A stretch of 39,893 nucleotides of DNA from the UHGV virus genome UHGV-0204626, one strand, 5' to 3'. Under the pieces are notes generated by a model. That model worked only from the letters and a program-made list of their open reading frames with translations, ran no database searches and was not told the DNA's origin. The position numbers and the translations under genes are program-made. Position 1 is the first letter of the stretch, and each line of letters opens with the position of its first letter. Positions 10-39,225 of the stretch are shown here, piece by piece. The DNA comes from a virus.

Positions 10-1188
10 ATGGCTATAAGCGACACAAAACTGCGTACTATTTATGGTAAACCATATTCGGGCCCACAAGAAGTGGCTGATGCCGATGGCCTCAGCGTAC
101 GAATTTCACCGAAGGGGGTCATCCAGTTCCAGTACCGCTATCGCTGGCATGGCAAGCCTAATCGACTTGGGCTTGGTCGATACCCATCCCTGTCTTTGAA
201 GGACGCCAGACAGATCACTGCTGACTTGCGAAAGCTCTATTTCTCAGGAACGGATCCACGCACCTATTTTGAAGAGAAGGTGGAGAACTCCATGACGGTC
301 GCCCAGTGTCTCGACTACTGGTTCGACAACTACGTCTCTACAACTCTCAGAGAAAAGACCCAGGCACTTTACCGATCAACGGTTATGAAGCGCATGCATG
401 ACGCCTTTCCTAATCGTCCGGCATCTTCTATCACGGTTAAGCAATGGGTTGACCTGCTTACCGAAGAAGAAAGAGATAATCCACGCCGAGCAAGGCAGGT
501 GCTAAGTCAACTAAGATCAGCAATAAGTTGGTGCATGCGGCGTCAGTTGATAGATAGTTGCGCAATTATGAGCATCCAGCCAAGGGACTTCGGCTCACGC
601 GCTGAGGTAGGGGATCGGGTACTGTCGTATCACGAACTGGCTAAGATTTGGCTTGCTATTGAAAGAAGCCGTGCGTCTACGTCAAATAAGCTACTTCATC
701 AGATGCTTATGCTGTGGGGGGCGAGGCTCTCAGAGCTTAGGCTGGCAAAAAAGACAGAATTTGACCTGCTGGAAAACGTATGGACCGTACCGAAAGAGCA
801 TAGCAAGATGGGTAATGTTATCCGCCGTCCAATCTTCGAACAAATTAAGCCTTTCCTCGAAAAGGCCATGACAACGTACAATGATGTTCTTTTCCCTGGA
901 GAAGACATAAACAAACCGATCAGCATCGCTGCAGCCAACCGATTCGTAAATAGAATAAGGGGAGGGATGGATCTGGGTTACTGGCGAACACATGATTTCA
1001 GAAGAACGCTTGTTACACGTCTGTCCGAGATGAATGTCGAGCCTCATGTTACTGAGCGAATGCTCGGTCATGAACTTGGCGGGATAATGTCCGTGTACAA
1101 TAAACACGACTGGATAGAGGCTCAGCGCAAAGCGTATGAGCTTCACGCTGATAAATTGTTCTGGCACATCAGGAGCATTTCTGATTAA
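10..1188 (+). CDS. int: Tyrosine integrase (P4-like, with N-terminal arm-type DNA-binding domain)
   Basis: 392-aa ORF; N-terminus has the arm-binding domain pattern (GLSVRISPKG...FQYRYRWHGK...LGLGRYPSLSLKDAR) and the C-terminus has catalytic-domain motifs (HDFRRT...MLGHE...Y). It is the first gene in the window, as expected for a prophage or phage end. Confidence 0.9.
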   Translation: MAISDTKLRTIYGKPYSGPQEVADADGLSVRISPKGVIQFQYRYRWHGKPNRLGLGRYPSLSLKDARQITADLRKLYFSGTDPRTYFEEKVENSMTVAQCLDYWFDNYVSTTLREKTQALYRSTVMKRMHDAFPNRPASSITVKQWVDLLTEEERDNPRRARQVLSQLRSAISWCMRRQLIDSCAIMSIQPRDFGSRAEVGDRVLSYHELAKIWLAIERSRASTSNKLLHQMLMLWGARLSELRLAKKTEFDLLENVWTVPKEHSKMGNVIRRPIFEQIKPFLEKAMTTYNDVLFPGEDINKPISIAAANRFVNRIRGGMDLGYWRTHDFRRTLVTRLSEMNVEPHVTERMLGHELGGIMSVYNKHDWIEAQRKAYELHADKLFWHIRSISD

Positions 1189-1360
1189 CGCCACCGTTAA
1201 GAATCCACCCTTCAACAGCTTCACGAAGGTATGATTTGGGGTGGGTTCTGACTGGCTTCGGAAATCCGTGCCGTTTGGTATAGTTCCAGATTGTCTGACG
1301 TGATGAAACACCGAGCTTATTCATCACTTCTTTCTCAGGAATCAGGCTGGTATCGGTCAT
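1169..1360 (-). CDS. xis: Excisionase / AlpA-like helix-turn-helix DNA-binding protein
   Basis: 63-aa ORF convergent with int; the ...RHGFPKPVRTHPKSYLREAVEGWI pattern resembles AlpA/Xis-family HTH proteins. The true start may be the internal Met (MNKLG...). A hairpin plus T-run follows at about 1372-1395 on the minus strand. Confidence 0.55.
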   Translation of the reverse strand: MTDTSLIPEKEVMNKLGVSSRQTIWNYTKRHGFPKPVRTHPKSYLREAVEGWILNGGVNQKCS

Positions 1361-30271: not shown

Positions 30272-31621
30272 ATGGCTACGTGGCAACAGGGTATTAATTC
30301 TGGTGGTTTTCTGGCTGGCATCGGTACGCAAAATGAGAATGCGCCAAAGGCAAGCGACATTAACGCAACGCTTGGTCTGATCCGCGAAAACAATGAACTG
30401 GCTCGCTCAGGTGCAAATAACGTTGGCCTGACCGCGTTACGTGGTCTGGCTGGAGTTGCTGATATTTACAATCAGGAACAGCAACAGAAAGCGATTAATG
30501 CGTTCAATAAGGTTCATGCTGATGCATGGGCTTCTGGTGATCCATCGGGACTATTTAAGTTTGCCCAGGAAAATCCAGCGTTTGTTGCACAGGCACAACA
30601 GGCGTTTTCCGGTCTTAATGAGCAGCAACGCAACGATATGGGCGATTTAGCCATGAGGGCTAACGTCGCTCTTTCTCAGGGACCGGAAGCCTACAGTAAA
30701 TTCATTACTGATAACAAGGACAGGTTAAATCGCGTGGGGGCGAATGCTGACTGGATGATTCAGACAGGTATCCAGAATCCAGAGCAGCTATCACACATGT
30801 TGACTACTATGTCTCTCGGTGCACTTGGGCCAGAAAAGGCGTTTGCTGTTCAGGATAAGATGGTTGGTCGCCAACTAGAGAAAGGGCGATTGGATGAAAG
30901 CATCCGTCAGGCTGATATGGAGAATGCGAGAGGATGGGCAAATATCCAGAACGCTCAACTAGACAGGACTCAGCGGGCACAAATGCATAATGATAACGTA
31001 GCCCTGAAGTTGCAGGAATTAGGGATGAAACAACAGGAAAGCGGAAAGATTGACCCAAAACTTGTTCGAGATCTGAATAGTGATATTAATGGGTTCTCAA
31101 AGAATTATTCTGCAATGCGCAGTGCTTCTGACAACCTACAAGCCCTTGGGAAGCGCAACACTCCAGCCGCGCAGTTGGGAATGATTTTCAACTATATGAA
31201 ATCGCTGGATCCGCAATCTGTGGTACGCGAAGGTGAGCAAGTGCAGGTAAAACGCACTGATGGAATATTCGGCACACTTGGTAACTATGTTAGCCAATTA
31301 TCTAACGGCAAGATGCTGAATAATGAGCAAGTCCAAGACTTAATCAACACCTCAAAACTGATGGCAAATACTGAAGGCGAAAAGTTTAACCAGCAAATGG
31401 ATGATTATCTTTCAACTTATGGAGATTCTCTCCCCAGCGGACTAACTAAGCAATTGCAATCCAGAAAAGCCAAGCTGTATGAAGATATTCAGCAGCCTGC
31501 GCAACAACAGACACAACAAGCAACATCTGGCGGTCAAACATTTCGAGAAGGTATGACCGCGAAAAATCCTAAAACTGGTCAGAAAATTATTTACAGGAAC
31601 GGACAATGGCAACCAATGTAG
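30272..31621 (+). CDS. Ejection protein gp20-like
   Basis: 449-aa ORF at the conserved position, Gln-rich. Confidence 0.8.
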
Positions 31622-33759
31622 GTTTACCAGAGGGGTTTGTTCTTGATGAACAGCCTGATAACTCACAGCTTCCTGATGGCTTTGTGCTTGATTCCCAACC
31701 AGAACAGCAGCAATCTCCTTTGGTTTCACCAGAGGAAAATTCCAGACAGGAAAACGTGGTTAATAAAGCCAACGGTTTCGACCGTTTTATGTTTGGCGTT
31801 CTCAGTGGGTTGATGGATGTTGGTAAAGGTGTTGGCCTATTTCAGGATATGACACCAGAAGAGCAAGCCGCAATTCAGTCTCTACAGCAGAAGTTAGCGG
31901 CAAAACCATCAACCGCACAAGATGTTGGTGAGTTTGTTGGACAAGCAGCACCATTTGTTAGTGGTGGTGGGATTATTTCTCAGGTTCCGAAAGGGGCGGC
32001 AAGGCTGGCTGCCGCCGCAGGGCTTGGTGCTGGAGAAGGGGCTATTGTAGCCAATGGAACAAATAGCGATGTTGCTTCCGGCGCTGCTATTGGCGCTGTG
32101 GCTGGCCCCGTAGCCGAGATTGTTGGTCCAGCGCTTGGGAAGATTGCAGGAAAAATTAAAAATAGTGCCGGAGATATTTACCGCTCATCCGTAGGGATGG
32201 GTAGTAAATCATCTAAAGCAACGTTAAAGAAAGCTGCTGGCGCAATGGATAATAAATTTATTGGCGGGCAACGAGCTATTCAAGATTTCGCCGATGAAGT
32301 TAATCCTGATTTTAACGCGATAAATGCTATTCGTGAGCTAGAACTGGAAAATTATGCCACTCCAGGCATGATCTCTAATAATCCTGCTGTCAGGGCTCTT
32401 GATAATGCAGTGGCAAGTCTTCCTGGAACAGAGATTAGTGAGGCGCATAAGCGTTTTATTACTGAATTAGGAAGAAAAGCTGATGAAATGATAACTTCAT
32501 TTGGGGGAAGCCTTGATAAGCAACTGGTTTCTGACAGGCTTGCAGATAATTTTGATAAAACCATTTCATCATTACAAAATCAGTCAGATAACATCTACAA
32601 CAAAATTGCCGAAAAGGTTCCGGTAAGAGACCGGATTGAGGCCACTAATACGTTGAATTTTTTAGAGGATTTTGCTGATGACATAGGGGGAATTGATGAA
32701 TTATCTCCAATAATGAAGCGGACATTGAACCGACTTGATCCAAACACCTTGCCAACGTATGGGCGTTTAGATCTCGCCAGAAAGCAGGTTGGGCAAGCTA
32801 TTGGCAAAGGCTCTGGCCCATTCAAGGATGAAGAAACAGGTGTTCTTAAAAAGTTATATGCAGCTATAACAGATGACCAACAGGCTGTCGCAGAAAAATA
32901 TGGCGCAGGGGAGTTATGGACGCTTGGTAAGGAGTTGGTAAAAAAACGAAAATCCATTGAAGATGATGCCGTAACCGTTTTGGGTAGAAAACTTCAGCAA
33001 TCAGCAATTCCAAAAGTTGAAAGTGCCGTTGTTAATATGGCAAAAGGAAACGGTGGTGACTTTAGGCAATTAATGAAGTCAATTCCAAAGGATATGCGGC
33101 AGGAAGTTGCGCTCACTTCAATGAATAAAGCATTTACCAGCTATGCTAAATCACCAGGTCAGCAATTAGGGGTTGATGGATTTGTAAAATGGTATAACGG
33201 AATGTCACGCAATGGGGCCAATATGAAGGCTCTCCGTGATGCTATTGGCACAGATGCATCAAAGCGCCTTGATACGATTTATCAAGCAGCCAAGGCTATG
33301 AATAGACTCAATACTGGTAAGCAGTATGCTAGCAGCCTTGTGGATCAGCAAGTTAATAACTTTCTGAAGGAAAAGGGTAGTCTAGCAAAAATTTATGGAA
33401 TAGCCTCAAAAGCTGCTGCGGCGGAAGGTGTTACAAGCTTATCTGGTCTTCCTGGTGTAGGTGCAACAGGGGTGATAACGTCCGCATTGATGTCAGGGAA
33501 AACAAGCAGGATAAAGGCTGCTGATGCTCTACTGTCTTCTCCTGAGTTTAAATCAATGCTATTTCGCCTGCAAAACGCACCAGTAGACAAAGCAGAAGTG
33601 AGACGCGCAATAGAAAGGAAACTGATGCAATCTGGGGCATTTAAGAGATGGGAGAAAACCCTATCAACAGATGAAGCAAAAACCATAGCTCGCACTGGCA
33701 TTATTACATGGTTATCTCAGCAAGATACTACAGCCAGTGACGGCGACCAAAAGATGTAA
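31606..33759 (+). CDS. Ejection protein gp16-like
   Basis: 717-aa ORF, the last structural gene before the immI-like region; contains Gly/Ala-rich hydrophobic stretches. Confidence 0.8.
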
Positions 33760-33819: not shown

Positions 33820-34026
33820 CTATCTGTCAACTAAAGGACAATTGCTAATCCCCATGATCCCATTATCCGAGTACCAATAATTTCTGGAGAATTTTCCAGA
33901 AGCGCTTAGGTATTTACATTCAATCTTGTTACCGTCAGTTATTGATGAATATTTAACCCCATAACCAGTAAATGCAGACAAAACAAGTAAAAAGATTGCA
34001 AATAACCCAATAGTAAATTTTTTCAT
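33820..34026 (-). CDS. Hypothetical small secreted protein (signal peptide)
   Basis: 68-aa ORF with a classical N-terminal signal peptide (MKKFTIGLFAIFLLVLSAFTG); AT-rich gene. Confidence 0.5.
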   Translation of the reverse strand: MKKFTIGLFAIFLLVLSAFTGYGVKYSSITDGNKIECKYLSASGKFSRNYWYSDNGIMGISNCPLVDR

Positions 34027-34036
34027 ATCAACATCC

Positions 34037-34426
34037 TTAGCATTTTCTTTTTACTTTTCCAACAAAAGCTTTGGTTGAATCCATATTCCCATAACCAGAA
34101 ATGGTTTTCGACATTAAAACTGTTCCATTAGGATGTATTACCCATGAGTCGATAACTCGTTGAGTTTCGCCATTCGCGCCGATTCCAATGATGGAGTTTT
34201 TAGACAATGCTTTGTAAGCCATGCCGCCCGCATCTGTCCCAGAATATGTGATGCTGGCATCTTCACCGCTTGTCTTAATGATGAATGTTCCACTAAAACC
34301 ATCTTCTTCCGGATGGAAATTATTTCGTTCTGAATAGCTTATTCCGCGCATATCTCCAACGACCCAGCACTCTGCTGTAGCCCCAAAAGATATGAATAAG
34401 AACATAGCAGCAAGAAATTGCTTCAC
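34037..34426 (-). CDS. Hypothetical secreted / periplasmic protein
   Basis: Probable GTG start preceded by AAGAGG, giving the signal peptide (V/M)KQFLAAMFLFISFGATA; the six-frame ORF extends upstream to 34498. AT-rich; I do not recognise the protein. Confidence 0.55.
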   Translation of the reverse strand: MKQFLAAMFLFISFGATAECWVVGDMRGISYSERNNFHPEEDGFSGTFIIKTSGEDASITYSGTDAGGMAYKALSKNSIIGIGANGETQRVIDSWVIHPNGTVLMSKTISGYGNMDSTKAFVGKVKRKC

Positions 34427-34643
34427 ACCAACCTCTTTAGTTTTTCTAGTTACTTTGTCACGATAGGATATGCGAATTGATAAAACTAAATTGCGCACAT
34501 GATAACTCAGTAATAATTGTTAATGAAAACATGATCACCTATATTGCACAAGGCGAAACAGGAAGCATAATCTGGTTTCATGAGTGTGATCACGTTTGGG
34601 TAAATCAAAGTCAAGAGGAAATACTTGAAATTATCAAAAATAA

Positions 34644-35225
34644 CTATCTAAACGTTGCACACGACTCATCTATCCATTTTTCATAAAATTGTATACCGAG
34701 ATAGGCAAGAACAGATGGATGTATATCAACAAGCTTTTCGCCAAGATGTTCTGTTGGAGGTGGATAATCTTTGCCTTGGTTTCTTACGGTTATAGGCATA
34801 GTTGTTGCTGGATGAAACTCAACTATCATAGGGTCGCCTTCGTATTTTGCTATTTTCCCTGTTGAATCAATGATTAACTCTTTAATATAATGGCTTCTTG
34901 CTCCCGGAAATGCCCCAAGAGTAGTATAAGGAGGTTCAAGTTTTGAGATTTCCATAGTGGAATGATGATCAGCATTTCTTGCTTGGTGAAGGTAAGCAAG
35001 TGTTTTGTCTGTTTTTCTAAGCATGAACTTTTGGTTGAAGTGGCTGCTAAATTTTCCACTAACCGGCTTTGTTGCACAGAGCAACTTACTGAAAGACTTT
35101 TCTATATGCCCAAGACATTCTCGCCAGTGCATCTCAAAATCATCATGGTTTGTAGATGATTTCATCTGCTCTAGGCACTTTTTAGCTGCGATGATTTCTT
35201 TTTTTGCTGGGTTGTAATCGATCAT
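34644..35225 (-). CDS. Hypothetical protein (193 aa) co-transcribed with mnt
   Basis: Start ATG overlaps the mnt stop (ATGA), so translational coupling is likely; no signal peptide; AT-rich; I do not recognise the protein. Confidence 0.65.
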   Translation of the reverse strand: MIDYNPAKKEIIAAKKCLEQMKSSTNHDDFEMHWRECLGHIEKSFSKLLCATKPVSGKFSSHFNQKFMLRKTDKTLAYLHQARNADHHSTMEISKLEPPYTTLGAFPGARSHYIKELIIDSTGKIAKYEGDPMIVEFHPATTMPITVRNQGKDYPPPTEHLGEKLVDIHPSVLAYLGIQFYEKWIDESCATFR

Positions 35226-35470
35226 TTTGCATCCTTGCCATACATGGTTTTCAGCGTCTCAAGCAGCGCCTCTTTGAATTTATCAGCTTCTTGGTTAGCG
35301 AATCCTTCAAGTGAGCGAGAGCCATCAAGATTATCAACATGTTTTTGAAGGATAAGCACAATCTCTGAGTTCATTGATCTGCCGTTTTTATCCGCTTCTT
35401 GCTGAATGCGTTTCTTTAAATAGTCTGGAATCCTAATCCCCAATGGACTGATATCTCTTGCACCTTTCAT
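35222..35470 (-). CDS. mnt: Mnt-like ribbon-helix-helix repressor
   Basis: Internal Met start preceded by AGGAGGAGA; N-terminal RHH motif (...PLGIRIPDYLKKRIQQEADKNGRSMNSEIVLILQKH...) close to the P22 Mnt/Arc motif; divergent from the arc-ant pair. Confidence 0.75.
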   Translation of the reverse strand: MKGARDISPLGIRIPDYLKKRIQQEADKNGRSMNSEIVLILQKHVDNLDGSRSLEGFANQEADKFKEALLETLKTMYGKDAK

Positions 35471-35579: not shown

Positions 35580-35720
35580 ATGAAAGTTAGAGACATCGCT
35601 CCATTAGGGATTCGTATCCCGCCAGAGATTAAAGAAAAATTGAAGGAAAAGGCTAAGGAGGAGGGCAGGTCTTTAAATTCAGAAATAGTGCAGCGTCTTA
35701 TTCGCAGCCTAAAAAGTTGA
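35580..35720 (+). CDS. arc: Arc-like ribbon-helix-helix repressor
   Basis: 46-aa product from the internal Met (MKVRDIAPLGIRIPPEIKEKLKEKAKEEGRSLNSEIVQRLIRSLKS), preceded by GAGGTGG; RHH motif GRS.NSEI. Confidence 0.75.
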   Translation: MKVRDIAPLGIRIPPEIKEKLKEKAKEEGRSLNSEIVQRLIRSLKS

Positions 35721-35783
35721 AGCCCCAACTGCTGGAACAGTCAGGGCTTCGGTATCGTAAAACCACGCATAGGAATTAACGAC

Positions 35784-36707
35784 ATGAAAAGTATAGCAAC
35801 AGCAGTATCTACTATCAATGTACCATTCCACGGCGCAGAGCTTTATGTTGTCAATCACAACGGCGAACCGTATACCCCAATGAAACCTATCGTTGAGGGA
35901 ATGGGTATGGATTGGGCTTCACAGTTTACAAAGTTAAAACAAAGATTTGCTAAAGGTATTGTGGAAATCGCAATACCTTCAGTTGGCGGTGTGCAGACCA
36001 TGATTTGCCTTGCTTTACGTAAACTGAATGGCTGGTTGCAAACCATCAGCCCTAACAAAGTCCGCCCTGAAATCCGCGACAATGTAATCCAGTATCAAGA
36101 AGAGTGTGACGATGTGCTATACGAGTACTGGACTAAAGGCCATGTAGTTAACCCACGCAAAGCTAAAAAGGCGTTGCCTGGTAAAATCACTACTGAACAG
36201 CAGGAAGCCATTAAACAACTCGTCATGAGTCGCGGTCAGTCTCTGCCAAAAGAAAAACAGGCTAAGGCGATGATCACCATGTGGTCGTCACTGAAATCCC
36301 ATTTTGGATGTTCGTACAAAGAAATCAGTGAGGAGCAGTTTACCGAAGCACTGTCACTTGCAGCTCGAGTTCCGCTTGAAGGTGAGTTCATCGGCAAACA
36401 AGAGAAGAAAACCAACGAGCTTTCTGCAAAAGAAGCAAACAGCCTTGTATGGTTATGGGATTATGCCAACCGCTCACAGGCATTATTCCGCGAACTGTAT
36501 CCGGCGCTAAAACAAATTCAATCGAACTATTCCGGCAGATGTCATGACTGCGGTTATGAGTTCTCCCGTATTATCGATATAGCGAGAGATGTTTTAATCA
36601 ATCACACACGAGATGTTGATATCAATGAGCCAGACGGACCAACGAATCTTTCCGCATGGATGAGACTTAAGAATAAAGAATTACCTCCTTCAGTTCATAA
36701 CTACTGA
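35784..36707 (+). CDS. ant: Antirepressor Ant
   Basis: 307-aa ORF downstream of arc, in P22 immI arrangement and the P22 Ant size range; Cys/His motif near the C-terminus (CHDCGYEF). Confidence 0.8.
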   Translation: MKSIATAVSTINVPFHGAELYVVNHNGEPYTPMKPIVEGMGMDWASQFTKLKQRFAKGIVEIAIPSVGGVQTMICLALRKLNGWLQTISPNKVRPEIRDNVIQYQEECDDVLYEYWTKGHVVNPRKAKKALPGKITTEQQEAIKQLVMSRGQSLPKEKQAKAMITMWSSLKSHFGCSYKEISEEQFTEALSLAARVPLEGEFIGKQEKKTNELSAKEANSLVWLWDYANRSQALFRELYPALKQIQSNYSGRCHDCGYEFSRIIDIARDVLINHTRDVDINEPDGPTNLSAWMRLKNKELPPSVHNY

Positions 36708-36807: not shown

Positions 36808-39225
36808 ATGACAGACATTACAGCCAATGTGATCGTATCAATGCCTTCGCAACTCTTCACTATGGCGCGTTCTTTTAAAGCAGTAGCCAATGGCAAAATT
36901 TATATCGGTAAAATTGACACTGACCCGGTAAATCCTGATAACCAGATTCAGGTCTATGTTGAGAACGAAGATGGTTCTCACGTTCCTGTTGCACAGCCAA
37001 TCGTCATCAATGCCGCTGGGTATCCAGTATATAACGGACAGATTGCCAAATTCGTAACTGTGCAAGGCCATTCTATGGCTGTTTATGATGCGTATGGTGC
37101 GCAGCAGTTCTATTTTCCTAATGTGCTGAAGTATGACCCTGATCAGTTACGTCAGCAATTAGAAGACCCATATGGTGCGGAAAAATACCCTGAATTACAA
37201 ATAGCCAGATGGATAGATGATGGAGATGTAAGGGGGTGGGGGTTAAAACCAGGCTATTATTTTGATAATAGTTCTGTATGGGAAAATCTGTTAAATTCTG
37301 GACGCAAAGATTTTGTTGTGCCTTCTGGTGTTTTCAGATTTTCTAACGGAATTGATATACCAGGAGACTTTAGATTTATAGGGCAGGGCTCTCCTATTCT
37401 TGGTTTTGGCACAGATGATGATAAGCATTTTTTGTCTGAAGGAATTAAGCAAAACATGCCGGGTTCATCATTTATATTTTCTGGAAAAGGGACAAAAGAA
37501 GCCACGGCGTACAATCGCAATGACCAATTTTCAAGCGTAAGGTATTGTGTGCGAGTTATGTCACCAGAGTATGGTTCTAGTGGAGCCGTATTACGTGGTA
37601 TTGCAATAATTCAGGACATGGTCTGCTTTGATGGTGATGGTATTCCAACAACCCCTAATAATGATATGCGTTCAGATTATGAGTGTGGTGTTTATTACGA
37701 CGACTCTGCAAGAAATCTTCAGGAGGATGTTTGTGTATTCGGATACTTTTCAAAAGCAGGTACAATAATTCAGTCAAAGCAAGGAAACGATGACCCTGAT
37801 TACAATACCATTACTGGTGGGTCAACTATGGGGAGAGTCGGTTTAGCAATTCTTGGTTCAAACACTGGGCCTGCAAGTTATGGTCTCAGCGGAACTAGAG
37901 TAGATAAATGTGGTATTTATACCCTTGATCACCACAGTCGTGCATCAATGTCTCATGAAGGGCTTGTTTCTTATTACTCTAGCGCAAACACATGGCGATG
38001 CCTTTATATAGATGGTGATGTTAATGCGACATCCGCTGAAATAAATGGGCATTACTTTTATGGCTGTGAGTTTAGAACCAGAGCTAATCATGCATTAGAA
38101 TTTGATCACGCATCCAACATCCAGTTTTATGGTGGCGTGGTAGAGCAATCCCCTTATGGTATTACAAATTCAGATATTCCGACTTTTATTGGTTCTGAGA
38201 ATGTAAAGAGAGGCGTTGGTTTTTATGGCGTGCGCATGAATTATATTTCTCAGATATTTAATGACAATTTTGCTGGAGTGATTCCTGTAAAAATAATAGT
38301 TTCAGGCGATCCGCTAAACGGTAGATTTGGAGTTGTAGGTAAAGACCCAGCAGGCGGTTATACCGTTGCAATTCTTGGCTCTGATGGGAATATTGGTGAC
38401 GCATCAATTCAGTTTACGAAGAATGCTGCTGATGGGTCTACAGGATGGAAAGTGATGATGGATGCAAGCTCCGACAGACTATTGGTCAGCAAGGATGGAG
38501 AAACCATGACGTCACTCACTGAGACAGGAATGTACACTGTATCGGCTCCATCTGGTTCTGATGCTATGCTTGGCCTGCTCAGTAATGGCAACGCTACATC
38601 TTGGTTCATGAGAACACAATACAACAGTGTAGGTCAATTACAGTTCAGACATGGTGGGTCTGGAGCTACTCCAGCAATGCAAATAGCAACATCAGGGGGA
38701 ATCACTCCTGGAGCTGATGCCACTTCAAATATAGGTAGCGCATCACTACGATATAACATTGGTTATTTTGCCGGAGGAACCCAGTCAAGCTCTGATGCAA
38801 GACTTAAGGATCCGATAAGAGAAATGACAGATTCTGAAAAGTCAGCAGCTAAAGAAATAGGAGAAATGATTGGGTTTTGGACATGGATTGATGATGACTC
38901 AAAGCGTTTGCATGCAGGAATAACAGTTCAATCAGTTATATCTGTATTAGAAAAACATGGATTAAATTGGAAGAATTATTCATTTATAGGTTTTGATGAA
39001 TGGGATGACATATATGATGATGTAGTTAAAGACATCGAAGTTGAAGATGCGAATGGTAATAAAAAAATAATATCGGTTAATTCTGGAGAGAAAAGGCTTG
39101 TAAAAAAAGCAGGGAATCTTTTTCAATTTAGAGACCAAGAATTAGACAGATTTATAATGAGAGGGTTATCAGAAAGGATATCTGATATTGAAGATTTATT
39201 GATTAAAAAAGTTATTAAACAATAA
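36808..39225 (+). CDS. Tailspike protein (P22 gp9-type head-binding domain, divergent receptor-binding domain, C-terminal chaperone-like domain)
   Basis: 805-aa ORF; the first ~110 aa ([43 protein letters not shown]...[13 protein letters not shown]...NVLKYDPDQ) match the P22 tailspike head-binding domain; the central region is Gly-rich (beta-helix-like); the C-terminal ~145 aa begin with [10 protein letters not shown]. Confidence 0.9.

Follow-up and report, generated by a model that had tools for sequence, protein, structure and literature searches.

Mosaic structure of the ant moron in a P22-like Escherichia coli phage genome: a Hex homologue in the sieA position, a YobH-family gene and a candidate HEPN-like protein

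Next to the repressor gene mnt, the 39,893-nt virus genome UHGV-0204626 (the window) carries three leftward genes, ORF193, ORF129 and ORF68 (positions 33,820–35,225; Table 1), a region that is one half, the leftward one, of the 'ant moron' in a P22-like Escherichia coli phage or prophage. Over the first 25 kb, the nearest relatives of the window are CUS-3, phiv205-1 and IME10. On balance, and by a narrow preference, the three genes are read here as independent morons that encode a Hex-like exclusion protein (ORF129), a YobH protein (ORF68) and a HEPN-like candidate for abortive infection (Abi; ORF193). The variable region as such is already known as the ant moron and is in rapid flux, with ten types among sixteen genomes (Villafane et al. 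2008, PMC2629481), and the description of the three genes as an undescribed module in an initial annotation of the window was therefore given up. The role in exclusion, defence or conversion proposed there is still the most reasonable reading, and the slot is indeed the sieA slot. New here are the unannotated HEPN-like family of ORF193 and the exchange of sieA, a hex-type gene and a third gene as cassettes, which also calls the published Hex mechanism into question.

Mosaic structure and cassette exchange at the sieA start codon

The mosaic structure was analyzed by megablast against 5426 complete E. coli genomes. Similarity breakpoints were observed at 34038, 34424–34444 and 35262. ORF193 was found in 21 of these genomes, and its start overlapped an Arc-family gene in each of them. 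All three genes occurred together in two of the 21 (PSJ-36 and LR-25). ORF129 was seen without ORF68 in some prophages, and in E7476 ORF129 and ORF68 lie beside a different mnt, without ORF193. Thus, the genes assort independently among E. coli prophages and do not form the single three-gene cluster that had been proposed.

The same ORF193 and spacer precede, in E. coli MB53 and YA-1, a gene for a SieA-type protein with the motif FxRYPxEAxxFNK, as anticipated from the earlier assignment of this slot to the sieA position of P22. When the window is aligned with MB53, the two sequences agree fully through the spacer, the ribosome-binding site (RBS) and the GTG, and diverge from the second codon. 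Thus, ORF129 replaces sieA exactly at the start codon and in the same expression context. The start of ORF129 at this GTG is backed by the GAGG RBS, by the gene calls of 129-aa homologues and by 'orf129' of phage Emek; the PGAP call is shorter (122 aa). A third cassette begins at the shared sieA/ORF129 start codon in SCAID URN1-2021 (L038 1963–2283, minus strand) and encodes a protein of about 105 aa with one N-terminal transmembrane segment and no Pfam match. The cassettes that alternate at this one start codon are accordingly SieA, the 105-aa single-transmembrane protein, ORF129 alone, and ORF129 together with YobH. The 217-nt spacer travels with ORF193, while its GAGG RBS is common to the alternative downstream cassettes. 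That sieA is exchanged at one start codon for a Hex homologue or for a third gene, encoding a small membrane protein, suggests that unrelated envelope proteins serve as functional alternatives.

SieA of P22 is a proven exclusion protein characterized by the motif FxRYPxEAxxFNK (PMC10883804). It shares with ORF129 the position and, through MB53 and YA-1, the spacer, RBS and start codon, and both would be envelope proteins that are expected to be made in the lysogen. The two proteins are, however, not homologous: SieA is a multi-pass inner-membrane protein, whereas ORF129 looks like a soluble, exported beta-barrel. Neither the SieA motif nor multi-pass membrane character was found in ORF129, which is predicted to be all-beta and exported.

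A second site of exchange lies between mnt and the Hex-like gene. In EC416 (L046 3270–4137) and in phage Emek (L040 3758–4631), a rightward two-gene pair takes the place of ORF193. The first gene of the EC416 pair carries the annotation Panacea domain-containing, pointing to a toxin–antitoxin-type cassette, and the Emek pair (orf149/orf161) is of similar size and in the same position. Defence-type cargo may have a hotspot in this sub-slot.

ORF129, a homologue of phage 434 Hex

By sequence comparison, ORF129 is a full-length homologue of Hex of phage 434. In tblastn searches of a phage collection, ORF129 matched the 434 gene, which is annotated 'repressor protection protein', with 26.7% identity over 99% of the query. 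Further distant full-length matches (~27%) were obtained with Sf6 gene 38, HK446, HK633, Sf101, Huey and Chlobot. When a profile of ORF129 and 14 relatives was compared with 434 Hex by hhalign, the probability was 98.9% (E 2.4e-17, 128 columns). ORF129 has a classical signal peptide, MKQFLAAMFLFISFGATA, with predicted cleavage before ECW, and a signal peptide followed by ECW together with a C-terminal Cys is present in ORF129, its 14 aligned homologues and Hex. In both ORF129 and Hex, the signal peptide ends before ECW(V/I)V and the C-terminus reads STKxFVGxV..C, and the lengths are similar (129 and 134 aa). The predicted fold of ORF129 is a small beta-barrel of 8–9 strands. The ORF129-type copies examined are annotated 'hypothetical protein'.

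The genomic settings of the two genes differ. Hex follows cI, with which it is co-transcribed (PMC3564112), whereas ORF129, at ~27% identity, takes the place of sieA in the ant moron; in both cases, prophage expression of the slot is expected. The hex-type gene of 434, HK446 and Chlobot overlaps the stop of an imm434-type cI (PRM operon), and Sf6 gene 38 lies between the annotated PRM and OL, at the place expected for the repressor gene (gene 39).

Hex is named for heterologous exclusion: Salmonella lysogens of lambda imm434 exclude P22, and hex- lysogens do not (PMC3564112). Within the family, 434 Hex alone is known to have this phenotype (PMC3564112). Judged by its position in the sieA slot downstream of mnt, ORF129 most likely excludes P22-like superinfecting phages at the envelope or at the DNA-entry step. 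ORF129 would be exported to the periplasm, would fold there into a small disulfide-closed beta-barrel and would block superinfecting P22-like phages in the envelope, as its slot-mates do.

Alternatively, ORF129 could be a cytoplasmic Hex-like factor that shields the prophage repressor from RecA-stimulated autocleavage and thereby stabilizes lysogeny. Spontaneous, recA-dependent induction was 30-fold higher in hex- lysogens (Shkilnyj et al. 2013, PMC3564112), and in vitro the 434 and P22 repressors were cleaved less in the presence of a Hex fragment (PMC3564112). Nevertheless, a cytoplasmic ORF129 is considered decidedly unlikely, since ORF129 and Hex share a canonical signal peptide, a Cys after it and a C-terminal Cys, and since ORF129, in the sieA slot, is distant from the repressor gene and is exchanged there with membrane proteins. 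The published experiments can also be read in terms of export. The active 'sHex' fragment starts at E43 of the 158-aa ORF used by the authors (PMC3564112), and this residue is E19 of the 134-aa annotated Hex (L041 2495–2899; 158 − 134 = 24 extra residues). E19 falls exactly at the predicted signal-peptidase site, between ANS and ECW. In addition, overexpression of full-length Hex was toxic (PMC3564112), as is often the case with exported proteins. Since sHex starts at the signal-peptidase site and the full-length protein is toxic, we consider the Hex family to be exported. This suggests that Hex itself is exported, contrary to the cytoplasmic anti-RecA mechanism that has been published and with which the export signals of ORF129 conflict as well. 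The cassette exchange described above offers a direct route back to the question, dating from 1980, of how P22 is excluded by Hex.

ORF193, a solo protein with HEPN-like features

While a word-indexed search returned seven relatives of ORF193, an exhaustive profile search returned 1777 clusters (E ≤ 1e-3). Nearly all members are solo proteins of 190–200 aa, and those examined are all labelled 'hypothetical protein'. Their hosts include Enterobacterales, Vibrio, Providencia, Acinetobacter, Pseudomonas, many Alphaproteobacteria and others. In an alignment of 124 sequences, which are 22–46% identical to ORF193, the residues W34, Y78, R83, H88 and P157 are invariant, and R70, D73, A82 and H160 nearly so. 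The motif xAR[N/D/H/G]x[D/E]xH was present in all 150 representatives. Residue 84, which follows R83, is N in 67, D in 30, H in 13 and G in 13 of the 124 sequences (N, D or H in 110). Position 42 is E or D in 81 of the 124 and is followed by K/R43 and K47, a spacing that differs from the canonical Ex3K of HEPN helix 2.

The AlphaFold (AF2) model of ORF193 (mean predicted local distance difference test, pLDDT, 88.8; predicted template modelling score, pTM, 0.79) has helices at residues 5–23, 27–52, 60–83 (kinked) and, as the final one, 170–191. R83-x4-H88 lies where helix 3 ends, and a beta-rich insert spans about residues 94–154. HEPN RNases are recognized by Rx4-6H where helix 3 terminates, the R being followed by a polar residue (Anantharaman et al. 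2013, PMC3710099). The model likewise shows an up-down bundle of four helices, the third of which carries the motif at its end. Such a bundle, Rx4H ending helix 3, the polar residue after R and an association with mobile elements are all shared with the HEPN superfamily, as represented by MNT-associated toxins (7ae2, 8xdj, 5yep), AbiV and AbiU2, and the partly conserved acidic residue in helix 2 may be a further resemblance. In contrast to these, ORF193 falls outside the existing profiles and has the ~60-residue beta insert past the motif as well as an additional invariant PPxxHLG element. Judged from motif and modelled topology, ORF193 probably belongs to the HEPN superfamily. The protein could instead be a helical adaptor or regulator without nuclease activity, such as an anti-defence protein or one that modulates immI, in which the Arg and His serve in binding. 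This is regarded as unlikely, since the invariant R and H with their four-residue spacing, the N, D or H after R and the location at the end of helix 3 correspond to the HEPN signature (PMC3710099). As to modulation of immI, homologues occur in many contexts that are not P22-like and lack immI.

The relatives of ORF193 in enterobacterial phages occupy moron positions, with the flanking phage genes on the other strand. One lies between the lysis genes and the terminase of a lambdoid phage (L011), one among the tail genes of a siphovirus (L014) and one at a prophage end adjoining a tailspike gene (L004), and the family was found in four distinct phage contexts. No shared neighbour was detected in 19 alphaproteobacterial loci or in L004, L008, L010, L011 and L014, and the small ORFs that flank five of the homologues showed no mutual similarity. 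The 106 neighbours at the 19 alphaproteobacterial loci contained no recurrent Pfam family and gave almost no PADLOC matches; a few transposases and relaxases were among them. Longer members of the family carried no informative fused domains. A search for related loci with alignment A5 returned nothing among species-representative genomes. Since no neighbours recur, the family is solo, as reported for HepS.

HepS is a single-protein HEPN Abi system of Gifsy-1 that recognizes a tail-tip protein and acts by cleaving tRNA (PMC13043305). HepS (Nature 2026) and ORF193 are both solo proteins of about 200 aa, encoded by a prophage in an accessory locus without a conserved partner gene, and both combine Rx4H with beta elements beside a helical core; for ORF193, constitutive expression is predicted. 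No sequence link or close structural homology between the two proteins was detected, and the HepS gene is absent from the LT2 Gifsy-1 record in which it was sought. By analogy with HepS, the most likely role of ORF193 would be single-protein abortive infection or defence against competitor phages. In such a mechanism, translation of ORF193 would be coupled to that of mnt, the maintenance repressor gene, and this coupling lets constitutive production in lysogens be expected. As a HEPN RNase, it would consist of a four-helix bundle with the catalytic Rx4H and the ~60-residue beta-rich insert as a possible sensor. It would stay inactive until a phage component binds, and would then cleave tRNA or mRNA.

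The ATG of ORF193 and the TGA of mnt overlap as ATGA, as noted in the initial annotation. The last 12 codons of mnt (ETLKTMYGKDAK) are part of the ORF193 mosaic module, with the breakpoint inside mnt about 40 nt upstream of its stop. Four Mnt alleles (window 35222–35262, L001, L002 and L038) with very unlike N-terminal DNA-binding halves all end in ETLK(T/N)MYGK(D/N)AK. These observations could be taken to mean that mnt and ORF193 form a toxin–antitoxin-like pair, in which a ribbon-helix-helix (RHH) antitoxin acts through its C-terminal tail on a HEPN-like toxin, for prophage stabilization or as a two-gene Abi system. RHH antitoxins typically neutralize their toxins via C-terminal tails, and here the same C-terminal 12 residues travel with ORF193 under four differing N-terminal halves. 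The overlap with an Arc-family gene in all 21 E. coli copies and its retention in a 62%-identical homologue (L013), where ATGA joins the homologue to a divergent 83-aa Mnt-like RHH gene, point in the same direction. However, the large majority of the sampled ORF193 homologues have neither an upstream RHH gene nor a conserved neighbour, and the overlapping pair was found in the P22-like copies and L013, not across the family as would be typical of a type II system. Mnt moreover already has a defined role as ant repressor, with arc, sar and ant all present. The shared Mnt C-terminus closely resembles what we take to be the tetramerization tail of P22 Mnt. Since it resembles this ordinary tail, its sharing may be explained by physical linkage and recombination in conserved sequence, and with many solo homologues, linkage and recombination in the conserved end of mnt is the simpler explanation. 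A toxin–antitoxin pair is thus regarded as very unlikely. In the 2.5-kb contig L013, a fragment that appears by eye to be of the UmuC/ImpB type (1015–1257, minus strand) lies beside the ORF193 homologue and the Mnt-like gene.

Several points weigh against the reading of the three genes as a Hex-like exclusion protein, a YobH protein and a HEPN-like Abi candidate. First, no HEPN or other match in Pfam, NCBIfam or PADLOC was obtained for ORF193, its 124 relatives or two family consensus sequences, and a Foldseek search of ORF193 against the PDB returned nothing significant. The ORF193 sequence profile likewise matched nothing in the PDB, so that the HEPN assignment rests on motif and topology. 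Second, the alphaproteobacterial neighbours are mostly housekeeping genes, with few defence genes among them (one AbiEi, mad3/mad8). Third, the sole biochemical study of Hex proposes a cytoplasmic role, the block of RecA-stimulated repressor cleavage (PMC3564112). Fourth, the spacer holds no convincing promoter, and the expression of the three genes in the lysogen is something we infer. Regarding the initial annotation, in which none of the three proteins had been recognized, sequence and profile searches assigned ORF129 to Hex and ORF68 to YobH, while ORF193 still stands in an unannotated family with no match in the databases named above.

A bolder proposal is tentative and in our view doubtful: ORF193 might found a large family (at least 1777 clusters) of HEPN RNases with a sensor insert, acting as mnt-coupled constitutive Abi systems, and the Hex family might comprise periplasmic blockers of P22-type DNA delivery, which would overturn the anti-RecA model. 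If ORF193 were an active solo HEPN nuclease, a widespread family that is invisible to Pfam, NCBIfam and PADLOC 2.0 would join the short list of one-protein Abi systems. It would also offer a natural and easily manipulated context, namely a P22-like prophage with expression tied to mnt.

ORF68, expression and neighbouring genes

ORF68 matched the Pfam family YobH (PF13996; E 7.6e-10, 39.2 bits against a gathering cutoff of 27, profile positions 10–68 of 70), and PGAP labels its orthologue 'YobH family protein'. Among phages, a single record with a relative was found (65% identity). The chromosomal YobH of E. coli and Salmonella shares with ORF68 a hydrophobic N-terminus, a GYG segment and two Cys, but is longer (about 79 versus 68 aa), and ORF68 is prophage-borne. 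Signal peptides had been predicted for both ORF129 and ORF68; that of ORF129 is classical, whereas the hydrophobic N-terminus of ORF68 could be either a cleaved peptide or a signal anchor, and it may be the latter. Chromosomal YobH is required for host-cell invasion by Salmonella and is possibly secreted (PMC6726612). ORF68 is a prophage copy of this small envelope protein and would be a candidate lysogenic-conversion factor.

It may be asked whether the genes in general are host-directed factors of lysogenic conversion or fitness, such as envelope proteins for invasion, stress, or resistance to lysozyme or antimicrobials. This is considered quite unlikely. For the Hex family, no phenotype is known apart from phage exclusion and the stability of the lysogen; an alternative occupant of the slot, SieA, has a proven role in exclusion (PMC10883804); no Pfam match to MliC, PliC or PagP was found; and ORF193 is cytoplasmic with a nuclease-type motif.

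The three genes are probably expressed in the lysogen. Co-transcription with mnt, as predicted in the initial annotation for all three, is well supported for ORF193 alone, through the ATGA coupling. No terminator was predicted on the minus strand of the 217-nt spacer, and co-transcription of ORF129 and ORF68 with mnt is therefore possible. Their expression could start at Pmnt, by read-through, or at a weak promoter candidate within the spacer (TTCATT-17-TATCAT, 34527..34499). The spacer, which is also present in sieA prophages, may hold a promoter of its own. The upstream fragment of sieA from HS1, which is experimentally functional, was considered as promoter evidence and was dismissed, since the HS1 upstream region is unrelated. 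On the plus strand, ORF69 (34477–34686; 69 codons) takes up the AT-rich spacer, with a convergent overlap at the 3' end of ORF193. It looks FlbD-like by eye and was rejected as a gene, as it had no Pfam match, no significant PHROG match and no tblastn match in phages.

Table 1. Features of the ant moron and its surroundings in the window.
Feature	Coordinates	Strand	Description
Gene-16-type DNA-transfer gene	31606-33759	+	Left flank of the region
ORF68	33820..34026	-	YobH-family small protein, hydrophobic N-terminus, two Cys
ORF129	34037..34426	-	Homologue of Hex, predicted exported, in sieA position; 129 aa, GTG start 34426
Spacer	34427..34643	-	217 nt, 33% GC, ends in GAGG RBS
ORF193	34644..35225	-	Solo cytoplasmic protein, unannotated family, predicted HEPN-like bundle
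mnt	35222..35470	-	82-aa Arc/Mnt-family ribbon-helix-helix repressor of immI
arc	35580-35720	+	immI region
sar antisense RNA	35715..35782	-	Rfam RF00262, 81.2 bits, E 1.2e-16; between arc and ant
ant	35784-36707	+	PHROG anti-repressor match
Tailspike gene	36808-39225	+	P22-type head-binding domain at N-terminus

The three leftward ORFs past mnt were found as described before, with 193, 129 and 68 aa, and all are real genes. ORF193 matched PHROG 23516 over its full length (E 7e-120), ORF129 matched PHROG 2651 as well as 24 homologues, and ORF68 matched PHROG 21022 over its full length. ORF68 starts 10 nt past the stop of ORF129. The 1406-nt stretch has a GC content of 37.7%, compared with a mean of 47.0% for the window, and this is the minimum among all windows of 1406 nt. 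The AT-richness relative to the flanking genes that had been pointed out is thus present, with the qualification that mnt, arc and the tailspike gene are themselves low in GC (40–41%).

The mnt product matched the Pfam family Arc (PF03869, E 8.7e-8), and its gene starts at ATG 35470 with an AGGAGG RBS. The sar RNA has a terminator hairpin of 14 bp (35750–35719). With mnt, arc, sar and ant all present, the immI region of the phage is complete. The tailspike joins a head-binding N-terminus of P22 type to a Peptidase_S74 intramolecular-chaperone domain (residues 662–719), and within its gene the GC content falls to 32% around 38800–39200.

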